Sequence record: PZ386947.1
Source: a phage
DNA: 64,000 nucleotides
Reading direction: 5' to 3' (one strand)
The notes under the pieces were generated by a model. The model did no database searches, had not been told where the DNA came from, and saw nothing but the letters and a program-made list of their open reading frames with translations. Shown here piece after piece: positions 6,696 to 30,535 of this stretch (the stretch's first letter is position 1; each line of letters begins with the position of its first letter). The translations under genes were made by a program, and so were the position numbers.

Positions 6696-8378
6696 TTAAA
6701 CCATTACAGTAAATCGACCAACTTTCTTCATTTGAAGATGCTGACCATATTCTTGCGGGTCATGGTCTTTATGTGAAATTATAAAAACATTAGTGTTTTT
6801 CATTGAATTTATAATATTAGCTACACCTTTAATACCTTCGGCATCAAATGACCCATCAAACACTTCATCGAGTATTAATGTACTAATACTAACACCAGAT
6901 ACAATAGAAGCAATATCACGCCAAGTAAATAAAAGAGCAATATCAATTCGTGCTTTTTCACCTTCACTAAATGAAGCATAACTAAAATCTTCACGACCAC
7001 GGGATTTAATTGTCTCATTAAATTCTTCATCTAATGTAAACACATAATCCGCTTCCATTATTTTAAGATAATGGTTAATCTGCTTATTAAATAATGGAAT
7101 GTACTTTTTAATAATAGCACCTTTAATACCAGAATCTTTGAGCATATCAGTCAAAATTCCTCGGTGGTATTTTTCCATTACTAAATTAGTTTTTGTCTTA
7201 ACAATTTTATCAAGTTCTTCTTGAAGCAGTGCTATTTCATCAGCATGGTCAATAAACTCAGAAGATGCTTTTTCTATAGCCGCTTTAACTTTTTTGGCTT
7301 TATCTACCGTCGTGATTAGAGATTGCTTTTTATTGCGAATATCATTTGCCAACGACTGTTGGGTTTTAATATTATCTCGGTATTCATCAACAAGAACTTT
7401 TAAATTATCACGATGTGTTGAAAGCTGTTCAAACGAATGCGTACATTCAGAAACTTTATCTTTAATTTTAGAAACAACTTTATCACCGGAACTCAATTGT
7501 GACAAACAGGTTGGACATAATCCACCTTCGTGATACATATTAATGACTTTATTATACGAGTCAATTTTTGATTTAATTAAAACTGCTTCTTGACCGATTT
7601 TATTAAATGCATCAGTCGGGTCTTCATCCAAAACAATATTAACTAATCTTTCGTTAGCTTCTTCTATTTCCGATTTTAGCGTTCTAGCTTCTTTTGCCAA
7701 ATCATCATACATATTTTGCAGACGAGTAAGGTTGTCACCCGTTAATTTTTTCTGGCGTTCAACGTTATCATTATATATTTTAATTTGTTGGATAATACTA
7801 TCTTTTTTAACATCAAGCACTTGGTTCTGCGAATTTAATTCACGTATTAGTGCTTTATTAAGCTTATCCATTTCAGCTAATGTTCCTACCTCAAGCAGGT
7901 CTTCCACAAGCTTTCTTCGCGCAGGGGTCGACAAACCCATGAAAGGGGTATACCCTGCTGTACCAAGGACAACAATCTGCTTGAAACTGGCATATGACAT
8001 TCCGATAAGCTGTTCAAATTCTGCTTGGAAATCTTTACTGCTGGCAGATTCATTAAGACGTGTACCGTTAACGGTGATTTCGAAAACGTTTGGTTTTTGT
8101 CCTCTTTTGATATAGTACTTTTTCTCATCATATTCCATCCACAGTTCAACTAAAAGTTCTTTCTTATTTGTGCTGTTTATTAATTGACCTTTCTTTACAT
8201 CACGAAATGGTTTGCCAAAAAGCCCAAATGTGATGGCTTCTAACATAGTAGACTTACCACCGCCATTTCGGCCAGTAATAAGAGTTTTTTGAACCTTATC
8301 TAATTGAATGTCAACTCCATTTTGACCAACTGACATTATATTTTTATATTTTACTCTATTAAGTTTAAATGATTTCAT
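6696..8378 (-). CDS. 46: recombination endonuclease subunit gp46 (SbcC/Rad50-like ATPase)
   Basis: 560 aa; N-terminal Walker A GRNGGGKST, long coiled-coil middle with CPTC zinc hook, C-terminal signature/Walker B LILDEVFDGSFD. Confidence 0.95.
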   Translation of the reverse strand: MKSFKLNRVKYKNIMSVGQNGVDIQLDKVQKTLITGRNGGGKSTMLEAITFGLFGKPFRDVKKGQLINSTNKKELLVELWMEYDEKKYYIKRGQKPNVFEITVNGTRLNESASSKDFQAEFEQLIGMSYASFKQIVVLGTAGYTPFMGLSTPARRKLVEDLLEVGTLAEMDKLNKALIRELNSQNQVLDVKKDSIIQQIKIYNDNVERQKKLTGDNLTRLQNMYDDLAKEARTLKSEIEEANERLVNIVLDEDPTDAFNKIGQEAVLIKSKIDSYNKVINMYHEGGLCPTCLSQLSSGDKVVSKIKDKVSECTHSFEQLSTHRDNLKVLVDEYRDNIKTQQSLANDIRNKKQSLITTVDKAKKVKAAIEKASSEFIDHADEIALLQEELDKIVKTKTNLVMEKYHRGILTDMLKDSGIKGAIIKKYIPLFNKQINHYLKIMEADYVFTLDEEFNETIKSRGREDFSYASFSEGEKARIDIALLFTWRDIASIVSGVSISTLILDEVFDGSFDAEGIKGVANIINSMKNTNVFIISHKDHDPQEYGQHLQMKKVGRFTVMV

Positions 8379-8393
8379 TTTGTATCCAATTGT

Positions 8394-9248
8394 TCACAAT
8401 GAAGAAAATTCTTTAACTAAAGCCTGTAATGAAGCCTCTATTGGATATCCATTCTTAACTAACATTTTCCTAAACATTACATGTTTAGGACGATTATATG
8501 ATATCCACAATTCATACAATTTATCTTTATTATCCCAATGATAGCCTTTTCGTCGAGATGCTATATGAGCTTTTCTAATCTCCGGATTTTTCCAACTAGC
8601 AGCTACTGAATTTGATATAGCTATTTTATATTCAGGTTTTGATAAAGCAGCACGAACAGCCTTTTGGTGTTTAATTTTATTTTCTTCGTTATTAAACCAT
8701 TCCCTTGAAGCCATTGAAATTTTTTGTTTTGTTTTAAAATTATTTAATCTTTCTTTATTATCTTTCCTATTTTTTGCTACTGAAAAATATTTTAATGCCC
8801 TTTCTCTAGCAGCATTTCTATTTTGCGGATTTGAATAATACTGTTGAAGCCTTTTTGATATTGTGTCACTTACATCTTGTTTTATAAAACTATATTCAGC
8901 AGCTATTAAATCAACTTCGGCTAAAGATAAATTTTTATATGTTTTTCCTGACATCATTCTATTTAAAGCATTTAGCATTTTTCCATTTTTACCTTTTGCT
9001 AATAAGAAGTGTGCTTTAAAATGATTAAAATGACTTAAATTAACTAAATTCCATGTAGATTTTAAATATTCAGGAAATATTGATTTAGGAAGCACGTGGT
9101 GTGCTTCCGTTTTACCTGGAGTTTTAACAGTTGAATTCACAGAAATAAAATTAATGTAAGACTTGGCGTCTTCTTCACTCAACGCTAATTTTTCAACTAA
9201 TTCCTTTATTAAAAATTCATCATTAATGTCAAGTTTAAAATTCTTCAC
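8394..9248 (-). CDS. HNH homing endonuclease with NUMOD-like repeats
   Basis: 284 aa; HNH core EAHHVLPKS...NLVNLSHFNHFKAHFLLAK; C-terminal basic repeats; paralogous to the ORF at 29124..29903. GTG start overlapping upstream stop (GTGA). Confidence 0.85.
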   Translation of the reverse strand: MKNFKLDINDEFLIKELVEKLALSEEDAKSYINFISVNSTVKTPGKTEAHHVLPKSIFPEYLKSTWNLVNLSHFNHFKAHFLLAKGKNGKMLNALNRMMSGKTYKNLSLAEVDLIAAEYSFIKQDVSDTISKRLQQYYSNPQNRNAARERALKYFSVAKNRKDNKERLNNFKTKQKISMASREWFNNEENKIKHQKAVRAALSKPEYKIAISNSVAASWKNPEIRKAHIASRRKGYHWDNKDKLYELWISYNRPKHVMFRKMLVKNGYPIEASLQALVKEFSSL

Positions 9249-9460
9249 AAAAGATTCCTTTTAATGTATCTTTTAGACCATTCTATCATATCATCATAAT
9301 CTAAAAAGTATTCATCAAATTCAGCCATGCAAACAACGCCTTGTGCTGCTTTTGATGTGATATAAATTATTCCAACATATCTAGAATCTTCTTCGGTGTA
9401 ATCAATATTTGCTATGAATTCATCATTAATGTCAAATGTCGAAAACTTCACAGTATGCAT
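9245..9460 (-). CDS. hypothetical protein (46.1-like)
   Basis: ORF track 9245..9508; likely start MHTVKFSTFDINDEF. N-terminus shares an 18 bp DNA repeat with the HNH gene start. Confidence 0.45.
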   Translation of the reverse strand: MHTVKFSTFDINDEFIANIDYTEEDSRYVGIIYITSKAAQGVVCMAEFDEYFLDYDDMIEWSKRYIKRNLL

Positions 9461-28129: not shown

Positions 28130-29176
28130 TCATTTATAATAACTTCGGTGGTTTTCAAGATAAACCCTCTCAAGGAAGTCATCCCAAAAACCCATGTCTA
28201 CTTTTTGCTGCATACCGTTCTTAGAAGCTTCAGTAGATGCTGCTTCTACTTGATCGACCACATCTTCCAAAAACTCTTGAACCGTTTTAAATGGATGTTT
28301 ACCCAACTTCACGTCGAGAATAAATGGAGCATCTTGGAGTGGATAAACCAAGTCACCAGTTTTGTAAATTTCCAATAGTTGGAGTCCACCACGGCAAGCA
28401 TGACTCATAGCTTTCCAGTCAATACCTTCATTGGCTTCGGCCTTACGAGCACGTTCACCGTATTCAGCATCTAATTTGTTCAGTGACTGCTTAAGCTCAA
28501 TAAGAGAAAGCGTTGTCTGATATTTACGACCCAACACTGTGTAAAACGTCTGTGGGCCTGTTTTCTCATGATTATGGAACACCCATTCACAGAATTCGTT
28601 TTCTGGAAGACGATGCTTAATATCTTCAACTTTAGTACGACGCTGCTTAATGGAACCGTCTTCTTGGTAATCAACCCATTGCTCAGGGATTTGATTAACT
28701 ACTTTCAATACATCGCGTAATGCAGCCAAACGAGAACCCTTAACGCCGTATTTAGAAGCTTGCTTACGGACATATCCTAAATAGGATTTCATGTTAGTCG
28801 TATAAAAACGAGAACGGTTGTCTTGAATAAACTTCCACACATCAGGCAAATCAGATTTAACCACTAACTCAGGTGGAGTGTGAAGCATATCTAACGCTAC
28901 AGTTTCACCATCTGCTGCTAATTTAAAGAAATATTTAAGACTATACAATTCGTGGTCAATATCATCTTTAGTGTTTTTAGATGATGTGTTGTTAGTGTTT
29001 TTACTCATATGCTCTTTAACATTTCCGATAAGAATATCGCGAGCAGGAGGAACAAAAATTTCTTTAAAATCTACATCAGATTCTGGAGTAGAAGTTCCAT
29101 AAAGATGACTACCAAAATAAGACTTAACTACAGTTTTCATTATTAGACCTTTCATAATCTTCATTAAATTGTACAA
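28130..29176 (-). CDS. predicted nucleotidyltransferase (pol-beta-like NTase fold)
   Basis: 348 aa; N-terminal motif YFGSHLYGTSTPESDVDF fits the G[GS]x9-13 DxD NTase signature. Start uncertain (M1, M5 or M13). Confidence 0.65.
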   Translation of the reverse strand: MYNLMKIMKGLIMKTVVKSYFGSHLYGTSTPESDVDFKEIFVPPARDILIGNVKEHMSKNTNNTSSKNTKDDIDHELYSLKYFFKLAADGETVALDMLHTPPELVVKSDLPDVWKFIQDNRSRFYTTNMKSYLGYVRKQASKYGVKGSRLAALRDVLKVVNQIPEQWVDYQEDGSIKQRRTKVEDIKHRLPENEFCEWVFHNHEKTGPQTFYTVLGRKYQTTLSLIELKQSLNKLDAEYGERARKAEANEGIDWKAMSHACRGGLQLLEIYKTGDLVYPLQDAPFILDVKLGKHPFKTVQEFLEDVVDQVEAASTEASKNGMQQKVDMGFWDDFLERVYLENHRSYYK

Positions 29177-29903
29177 TCAATCGATGATAATTAGATTTTG
29201 GATATCCTAATTTACTTATATAAGTTCCGAATGACCCACGTTTAGGTCTATTTAATTTAATCCATAACTTATAAAGTAAGTCATAGTCTTGCCAATGTTT
29301 ACCAGTTCTTTGTCTAATTTTAGATGAATTTGATTGTTTCTTTTTAGTTTCAAAATTATTCAAAGATTTTTTGACTGCAGCAGAGTGTTTTTCTTTAACT
29401 CCCGGTCGTTTAAAAGCAGCTTTCACCCCTTTAGATATTTTTTCTTTAACTTCCGGTTTGTTTTGTGCTTCTAACTGGGATTCTGAAATTTTAGCCCTTA
29501 TTTCAGGAAGACTTAATGTTATCGAACGTTTTTCTCTGTATTCATTAGACTTCCACATTTCTTTCATTGTATTAGAATGTATTTTTGAAAATTTTTCTCT
29601 AACTAACTGATATCCTCTTGAAGTTAATTTGAGATTTCTTCCTAAAGAATCTTCTCCAAAATTATAAAATGACCACCATGCATAAATTAATCCAGGCGAA
29701 TTATAATGAATTTTAGCTAAAAGCCAATGGGCTATAAAATGCTCTCTAGCTGTTAATAAAACTAGATTATCAGAATCATCATTACCACCAATACAAGATG
29801 GAATAATATGATGCTTTTCCGTATAAAAATTTAATTTAGATTTATCTAATTTTCTGAGTTTTCCTTTCTTAATTAAATTATTATATACTTTAGTATAATT
29901 CAT
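29124..29903 (-). CDS. HNH homing endonuclease, MobD-like, with NUMOD-like repeats
   Basis: 259 aa; EKHHIIPSCIGG...NLVLLTAREHFIAHWLLAK; repeated basic motifs; position matches T4 mobD after the nrdC cluster. Confidence 0.85.
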   Translation of the reverse strand: MNYTKVYNNLIKKGKLRKLDKSKLNFYTEKHHIIPSCIGGNDDSDNLVLLTAREHFIAHWLLAKIHYNSPGLIYAWWSFYNFGEDSLGRNLKLTSRGYQLVREKFSKIHSNTMKEMWKSNEYREKRSITLSLPEIRAKISESQLEAQNKPEVKEKISKGVKAAFKRPGVKEKHSAAVKKSLNNFETKKKQSNSSKIRQRTGKHWQDYDLLYKLWIKLNRPKRGSFGTYISKLGYPKSNYHRLIVQFNEDYERSNNENCS

Positions 29904-29977
29904 TGGTTTTTCGTCTCATTTAATTTTGCTTTGCATTTATAACACATGTCTGTTCCACTTGAAATAAACATATTTCC

Positions 29978-30535
29978 TCACTTTGAAATCATAGTTGGAA
30001 TGACAGAATCAAGATAAGTCTTTAGTGCAATAGCTTCGTCTTTGGTAAATGTGACAATATGTGCTCGAAAATCATCAATTTGACGAATAGTTAAGACATC
30101 TCCATCTTCATAACATTTTGATACGTTTAAAACAGTTTCATCATTCTGATTGCAAGCGTTAGTAATAATAGCATTGCAATTTTTAAACCATTTTAAACTA
30201 TGTTTTCTTTCATTAGAATAATAAAAATATTTAATCTTATCTATAAAACTATCCCAATGGATAACTGATAAACACATTGACTCACTTTTAATATTAAATC
30301 CTGGGCATGAAGAATAAAAATGAATTTTGTGCTCATCATTGATGCTTACTATTTTATCAGTATAAGGATATTCAATTTGGGTTAAATGAATGATTTCACT
30401 AGGCGTAAAATATAGCATATCGTCTTCTTGTGTCAAACGATACATATTATTTACTTTTTCTATAGCTAATTCACCAAAAAGCGGACTAACTTCTAATACT
30501 AATCGTTTCATATTGATTCTCTTCGACTCACTCAC
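29978..30535 (-). CDS. hypothetical protein
   Basis: 185 aa ORF. Confidence 0.55.
   Translation of the reverse strand: MSESKRINMKRLVLEVSPLFGELAIEKVNNMYRLTQEDDMLYFTPSEIIHLTQIEYPYTDKIVSINDEHKIHFYSSCPGFNIKSESMCLSVIHWDSFIDKIKYFYYSNERKHSLKWFKNCNAIITNACNQNDETVLNVSKCYEDGDVLTIRQIDDFRAHIVTFTKDEAIALKTYLDSVIPTMISK

Follow-up and report, generated by a model that had tools for sequence, protein, structure and literature searches.

Two open reading frames for HNH endonucleases lie on the same strand of the 64,000-nt phage sequence analysed here (record PZ386947.1, referred to in full as the window), and the question raised by the one at 29124..29903 is whether it and the other, which carries a similar nuclease core and C-terminal block, are copies of one element that has recently spread within the genome. 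That T-even phages carry free-standing HNH homing endonucleases is textbook knowledge. The ORF at 29124..29903 is mobD; we regard it as probable that it is a free-standing homing-endonuclease gene and that its likeness to the second gene stems from a large modular family and separate acquisition, not from duplication. The second gene has no gene name and is referred to here as HEG46.

29124..29903, minus strand: mobD coding sequence, an ORF of 259 aa starting at ATG, with the stop codon counted in the interval
8394..9248, minus strand: HEG46, located between genes 46 and 46.1 and encoding a free-standing HNH homing endonuclease

Identity and locus of the gene at 29124..29903

The neighbourhood of the gene, as taken from the annotation, consists of the following features.

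28130..29140, minus strand: nrdC.11 (nucleotidyltransferase; phrog_388), a conserved gene downstream of mobD and the candidate for its target
29978..30511, minus strand: mobD.1 (phrog_1502), the conserved upstream neighbour
29124..29140, minus strand: 17-nt overlap of the 3' end of mobD (last codons and stop) with the start of nrdC.11

Over 1.2 kb surrounding the gene, the sequence shows 100% identity to that of Shigella phage CM8 (NC_054939.1 / MK962750.1), a T4-type Tequatrovirus in which the same ORF is annotated in RefSeq as KMC31_gp092, 'homing endonuclease' (window position = CM8 record position - 23973). The original prediction that the mobD position holds an HNH endonuclease gene was borne out. 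T4 MobD (NP_049710) and the encoded protein are identical at 258 of 259 residues (99.6%) with all 259 covered, T186A being the sole amino acid substitution between the CM8 and T4 proteins. Moreover, the gene occupies the same slot in CM8 as in T4, with nrdC.11 downstream and mobD.1 upstream, all on one strand, and mobD overlaps nrdC.11 in the same way in both phages. With this near-identity in the same slot, the ORF encodes the ortholog of T4 MobD and is mobD itself, beyond merely occupying the mobD position. MobD also matches phrog_655, 'homing endonuclease', with an E-value of 1.3e-56, and the gene lies outside any intron or intein, as a discrete cassette between conserved genes. Both the gene and its place have long been known, and in this respect the finding is an ordinary one.

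In Table 1 of PMC2988022, mobD is listed as a free-standing gene of the HNH family between nrdC.11 and mobD.1, with activity 'ND' and target unknown, and the same source describes it as riding on neighbouring transcription. Our scan for sigma-70 promoters around mobD returned 11, compared with 11.2 expected from shuffled sequences (T4 middle and late promoters fall outside the scope of this tool), and the terminator scan of the same region returned none. That no promoter of the sigma-70 type and no terminator stand out agrees with the published view of mobD transcription; mobD, lacking an evident promoter and terminator, would be transcribed as part of the unit around it.

Nuclease domain and middle region

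The first two of the three parts of MobD are delimited as follows.

29658..29903, minus strand: N-terminal HNH (beta-beta-alpha-metal) nuclease domain, aa 1-82, with its core at aa 28-65
29304..29621, minus strand: helical middle region, aa ~95-200, NUMOD3-like and all-helical in the model

The AlphaFold2 model of MobD, computed with 97 homologs as input (mean pLDDT 90.3), begins with an N-terminal helix followed by a beta-beta-alpha arrangement (strands 28-32 and 47-51, helix 52-65; pLDDT >90). Residues E29, H31, H32, P35, N46, H55 and H59 are invariant across the alignment of 97 sequences, and because of this invariance the active site of MobD looks intact. In the model of HEG46 (pLDDT 89.5) the elements follow one another in the same order, with one further pair of helices at the N-terminus, and among the BFVD matches of HEG46 is a phage Melville protein named 'MobD-like homing endonuclease'. 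Profile and fold searches gave weaker signals. The Pfam HNH family was recognized in MobD with an E-value of 0.003 and 18.2 bits, below its gathering score of 21.4, and a phmmer search of the PDB with MobD yielded a single marginal match, the HNH domain of a group II intron maturase. The top Foldseek matches of MobD in the PDB were the HNH domains of Cas8-HNH, Cas9 and McrA, none of them significant (E at least 0.24). Neither the Pfam scan nor the model of MobD revealed extra domains, and for HEG46 the PDB sequence search gave no match and the Pfam and NCBIfam scans nothing meaningful.

MobD has the same N-terminal nuclease domain as the other T4 Mob proteins ('MNY..IY..L...HHIIP..GG.DD..NLV.LT..EH..AH'), with 51%, 46% and 40% identity to MobE, MobB and MobC, respectively, whereas HEG46 carries a different HNH subtype ('HHVLPKSIFPEY...WNLVNLS'). 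In contrast to the nuclease domain, the C-terminal DNA-binding regions of MobE, MobB, MobC and MobA are unrelated to that of MobD, and the BLAST alignments end at about residue 80-120, which fits the description of each Mob protein as having its own distinct C-terminal region (PMC2988022). MobE and MobA have been shown experimentally to be nicking homing endonucleases (PMC2988022). The solved structure of I-HmuI (PDB 1U3E), an HNH homing endonuclease with DNA-binding modules of the NUMOD type, follows the same general plan as MobD, in which an HNH nuclease is joined to extended helices that track the DNA and to a helix-turn-helix at the C-terminus, although the Mob proteins belong to group 1 and I-HmuI to group 2 of the His-Me finger endonucleases (PMC5714182). 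I-HmuI was absent among the PDB sequence and fold matches of MobD, which gave no HNH_3 match either.

The middle region of MobD is composed of about four degenerate 17-aa repeats (PEIRAKISESQLEAQNK / PEVKEKISKGVKAAFKR / PGVKEKHSAAVKKSLNN / FETKKKQSNSSKIRQRTG). Both proteins had been labelled NUMOD endonucleases, and this label is supported only indirectly. Pfam NUMOD3 (PF07460) was not detected at E<=1 in either window protein or at E<=0.01 in 11 close relatives, and no NUMOD family at all was found in the two proteins by the Pfam and NCBIfam scans. Nevertheless, NUMOD3 is carried by many of 1,591 MobD homologs, and in a joint alignment the Pfam-positive stretches of these homologs coincide with MobD residues ~110-190. 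A custom HMM of the NUMOD3 unit, built from relatives, scored weakly on both MobD (2.6 bits, with 18 of 500 shuffled sequences scoring as well) and HEG46 (5.0 bits, 3 of 500 shuffles). A fair description of the middle region on this sequence evidence would be 'NUMOD3-like, degenerate'.

Distribution of the mobD cassette and its candidate target

Comparison with related phages delimits two further intervals around the gene.

29145..29952, minus strand: mobD cassette of 808 bp, present or replaced among related phages (blastn against ECML-134 and Sf24)
29058..30001, no strand assigned: tract of low divergence between CM8 and T4 with 3 differences, covering mobD and reaching ~87 bp into nrdC.11 and ~50 bp towards mobD.1 (from mismatch positions)

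Homology with the mobD-less phages ECML-134 and Sf24 breaks sharply at 29144/29145 and 29952/29953. The site is occupied in these two phages by 962 bp with two unrelated ORFs, one for a membrane protein (phrog_944) and one for a second MobD.1-like protein (phrog_1502), and two unrelated ORFs likewise fill the mobD site in most mobD-less relatives. Among 641 flank-matching records, 47 contain the cassette, each copy being at least 99.5% identical, and diverged versions with 73-79% identity (VR26 and a20 types) occur in 7 further records, so that the carriers amount to 47-54 of 641 related records, or ~8%. The cassette also includes a TATAAAT string, located 35 nt upstream of the mobD ATG, which resembles the core of T4 late promoters.

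The CM8 and T4 cassettes differ at only 3 of 808 positions (99.63% identity), compared with 96.85% identity in the nrdC.11 flank and 90.51% on the mobD.1 side. Two of the differences fall within the mobD coding sequence, one missense and one at a third codon position. We interpret the low-divergence tract as the putative element plus co-conversion tracts, since homing with co-conversion yields just such a pattern, an element much younger than the DNA around it and edged by short stretches of conserved sequence. As far as can be read from the sequences, the signal that is present is spread of mobD between genomes, and the contrast in divergence between cassette and flanks documents this spread among phages as recent. 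The high identity of the cassette could partly reflect recent shared ancestry through ordinary recombination rather than homing.

By analogy with characterized homing endonucleases, MobD would nick or cut the mobD-less allele near its own insertion point during a mixed infection, most likely at the 5' end of nrdC.11, and recombinational repair from the mobD+ genome would then carry the cassette and short stretches on either side of it over to the genome that was cut. The junction alignment reads ACTGTAGTTAAGTCT at the start of nrdC.11 in mobD+ genomes and ACAGTAATGAAAAGC in mobD-less genomes; the changes are mostly synonymous, with a single amino acid change in NrdC.11. We infer that the nrdC.11 start is the best candidate for the MobD target. 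Part of the polymorphism at this start is forced, because the 17-nt overlap with nrdC.11 holds the last codons and the stop of mobD. Next to this overlap, substitutions that separate mobD+ from mobD-less genomes form a cluster. For a protein whose activity is given as 'ND' in PMC2988022, the analysis thus adds the exact boundaries of the cassette and a candidate target region.

The same overlap could be read differently. If mobD were a stranded, immobile remnant, kept in place by its overlap with the nrdC.11 start, with its patchy occurrence resulting from loss and ordinary recombination, its presence in only ~8% of related records and the 'ND' entry for its activity in PMC2988022 would both be accommodated; deletion of mobD would damage expression of the downstream gene, and such gene arrangements are noted to favour the retention of endonuclease genes (PMC2988022). 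We nonetheless consider this reading improbable, as the catalytic and family-invariant residues are all intact, the ORF is full length in 47 of 47 close copies, and the changes between CM8 and T4 in the coding sequence amount to the one missense and one third-position change given above. Furthermore, divergence is far lower in the cassette than in its flanks, as expected of a recently moving element, and decayed copies occur for the gene between 46 and 46.1, in contrast to mobD. It is more improbable still that MobD is mainly a weapon in phage-phage competition which cuts co-infecting relatives or excludes nearby markers, its own propagation being a by-product. The cleavage step would be mechanistically the same, marker exclusion is known for the free-standing Seg endonucleases of T4 (PMC2988022), and mobD stands where the rival allele has two accessory ORFs; yet the sequence offers nothing that would separate a weapon from ordinary homing, and MobD lacks any extra domain.

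The C-terminal module and the relation of MobD to HEG46

The relation of mobD, as a probable homing-endonuclease gene, to HEG46 was examined with regard to two further features.

8370..9239, minus strand: 870-bp insertion relative to T4 that carries HEG46, with TTTAAACTT on both sides (blastn against T4, junctions)
29127..29318, minus strand: predicted DNA-binding module of three helices at the C-terminus of MobD, aa 196-259, corresponding to the 'C-terminal block' of the original prediction

HEG46 starts with GTG and encodes a protein of 284 aa. It is absent from T4, which has a clean 46/46.1 junction at this place, and the gene is present in T6, RB51, PP01, ECML-134 and CM8. Compared with T6, HEG46 is 99.3% identical and its flanks are 98.5% and 96.9% identical, a milder form of the pattern observed for the mobD cassette. 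Our literature searches retrieved no described endonuclease at gene 46 and nothing relevant on NUMOD2.

The similarity between the two proteins proved to be genuine. BLASTP aligned MobD 28-246 with HEG46 47-281 at 30% identity over 243 columns (70 bits, E 1e-18), which confirms the predicted similarity in both HNH core and C-terminal block, and the pairwise alignment accordingly extends from the one to the other. The C-terminal block is significant on its own (41% identity over 51 aa, E 2.5e-10), so the similarity extends beyond the generic HNH motif. The motifs that had been quoted for the pair are found in MobD and HEG46 as HHIIP / HHVLP, HFIAHWLLAK / HFKAHFLLAK and HWQDYDLLYKLWIKLNRPKRGSFGTYISKLGYP / HWDNKDKLYELWISYNRPKHVMFRKMLVKNGYP, except that the spacing from NRPK to F in the C-terminal motif is three residues, not four. 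Both proteins match phrog_655 over their full length and share the same three-part architecture with the same C-terminal module, but the insertion sites of their genes differ. When T4 MobA-E and both window proteins were used as tblastn queries against the 64 kb, these two were the only Mob-type genes recovered, with a cross match of E 4e-16, and mobB and mobC were not found in CM8.

The C-terminal module itself, however, is not restricted to this pair. Its helices lie at residues 207-216, 222-231 and 240-258 in the AlphaFold2 model of MobD. A profile built from eight C-termini and searched among 1.84 billion proteins matched 142 cluster representatives at E <= 1e-3, of which 76 reached E <= 1e-10; the matches are mostly proteins of 200-300 aa with the module at the extreme end, while a few contain two or three copies. 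The pattern HH[IVL].P identifies 41 of 137 new matches as HNH proteins of the MobD or the 46/46.1 subtype, and most of those without it begin with GIY-YIG-like motifs. Among 97 module members, Pfam recognized NUMOD3 in 31, HNH in 11 and SegE_GIY-YIG or GIY-YIG in 12; no Pfam model was common to all 97, so none covering the block was found. T4 SegA and SegF also have C-termini homologous to the MobD module (hmmsearch E ~1e-7), with hhalign values of 90.9% (E 1e-6) for SegA and 94.9% (E 5e-8) for SegF, whereas the hhalign comparison of the module with I-TevI was negative (probability 0.08%). The nuclease domains of SegA and SegF are of the GIY-YIG type, in contrast to the HNH domain of MobD, and Seg proteins make double-strand cuts while the characterized Mob proteins nick (PMC2988022).

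The C-terminal block is thus best described as a predicted DNA-binding module that appears to have been shuffled among selfish nucleases, including two HNH subtypes and the GIY-YIG type, and since such a module is exchanged, sharing it does not imply a sister relationship. Its occurrence in both MobD and the GIY-YIG Seg endonucleases illustrates domain shuffling among selfish nucleases. With slightly more doubt than confidence, we suggest that the block may represent an uncurated nuclease-associated DNA-binding module of ~55 aa and three helices, swapped between HNH and GIY-YIG enzymes and sometimes present in two to three tandem copies. If so, it would make it possible to examine whether the module, rather than the nuclease, sets the choice of target and, together with the substitutions at the nrdC.11 start, would provide a testable prediction of the MobD target. 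This target prediction, the link of the MobD C-terminus to SegA and SegF, and the contrast between cassette and flanks are the mildly new elements of the analysis.

A ranking by domain against 263 collected proteins placed MobD and HEG46 far from each other. For the N-terminal domain, HEG46 ranked 151 of 154 among the matches to MobD, and MobD 82 of 90 among the matches to HEG46; the middle regions gave no mutual match in this comparison, and each C-terminus ranked 32nd in the list of the other. The nearest full-length relative of HEG46 is P0218, with 53/37/46% identity per domain, followed for the N-terminal domain by P0123-125 (phage KK4 type), whose C-terminus differs and is NUMOD1/I-HmuI-NUMOD-like. 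Target-like DNA shared by the flanks of the two loci, which had been put forward as a possible trace of common origin, was not found by blastn or Smith-Waterman alignment of either empty or occupied sites. Between 3.8-kb segments around mobD and HEG46, the best blastn match was 27 nt long (E 0.15), and in local alignments of the occupied junctions and the empty sites (the start of T4 gene 46, and the nrdC.11 start and upstream breakpoint of ECML-134), 600-991 of 1000 shuffles scored as high or higher.

That the two genes are recent paralogs, one element having spread to a second site within the genome, is hardly credible in view of these data: full-length protein homology including the C-terminal block, a common PHROG family, the same orientation and a position directly upstream of a conserved gene whose start each overlaps or rebuilds would all fit, but the proteins are only 30% identical, nucleotide similarity does not exceed chance, no junction or target sequence is common to the two sites, dozens of proteins are closer in every domain (MobE, MobB and MobC being nearer to the MobD nuclease domain than HEG46 is, and P0218 and P0123-125 nearer to HEG46), and each gene is found without the other in many phages. 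The 'recent intragenomic spread' originally proposed does not stand, and a 'recent' duplication is already refuted by these results. The resemblance between MobD and HEG46 is real but ancient and modular, and their co-occurrence most likely reflects separate acquisition of each gene at its own site. The annotation is thereby settled, with the ORF assigned as mobD and the window containing exactly two Mob-type genes that arrived separately. The independence of the two genes is also visible in their distribution, as T4 has mobD and lacks the gene between 46 and 46.1, T6, PP01 and ECML-134 have the latter and lack mobD, and CM8, G28 and the Pu-Krd-SF phages carry both.

Mob-type genes and the content of the mobD slot

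Only two Mob-type genes were found in the 64 kb by tblastn over the whole window, and mobB and mobC are missing from CM8 in the part of the window matching their T4 positions. In most related phages, the slot taken by mobD in CM8 holds two other ORFs, and the presence or absence of mobD is therefore a matter of cassette replacement and not of simple insertion. The alternative content of the slot is as follows.

Alternative segment in the mobD slot of two mobD-less relatives
2246..3207 in L006 (ECML-134 locus), same interval in L005 (Sf24 locus): alternative segment
ORF in this slot: 153-aa membrane protein (phrog_944)
ORF in this slot: 173-aa MobD.1 paralog (phrog_1502)

Further slot arrangements, at lower coverage, were seen in the records of RB27, bov10K1, and G8.

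Junctions of the 46/46.1 endonuclease insertion

The second locus, between genes 46 and 46.1, carries a homing endonuclease gene (8394..9248, minus strand) that is absent from T4.

Insertion at the 46/46.1 locus
8370..9239: 870-bp insertion with the 46/46.1 endonuclease gene
8361..8369 and 9231..9248: junctions

TTTAAACTT is found at each of the two junctions. The endonuclease gene opens with the T4 start of gene 46 (GTG plus codons 2-6, MKNFKL), which overlaps the 46.1 stop. At its 3' end, the insertion restores a start for gene 46 with a new sequence, ATG AAA TCA TTT AAA CTT (MKSFKL). From these junction sequences it follows that the element is located within the first codons of gene 46, and that it captured the gene 46 start signal and supplied a replacement with altered codons 2-3. 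This alteration in the rebuilt gene 46 may represent a target-immunity change.

Endonuclease codons 6-12 (9214..9232) and the 5' end of 46.1 about 200 bp upstream (9417..9435) are moreover identical over 19 nt, TTGACATTAATGATGAATT, which encodes DINDEF, suggesting that 46.1 was the source of, or a recombination partner for, part of the endonuclease 5' end.

Some copies of this endonuclease gene look decayed, as would fit the phase of degeneration that homing endonuclease genes usually go through. In RB51, RB68, and MLP2 (hits H194-H197 and H215), 851 rather than 852 bases are aligned, the RB68 annotation gives a 208-aa product, and BFVD entries for phage T2 list separate 204-aa and 85-aa products (98% identity).

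Possible mobD promoter and module multiplication

Within the mobD cassette, the mobD ATG is preceded at a distance of about 35 nt by a TATAAAT string (29935..29941, gene strand). This string is similar to the T4 late-promoter core TATAAATA and might provide the cassette with late expression of its own; the promoter scan covered sigma-70 sites only.

Two or three tandem MobD-type C-terminal modules were observed behind a GIY-YIG-like N-terminus in P0127, P0128, P0134, and P0142, suggesting that module multiplication can extend the recognition site.
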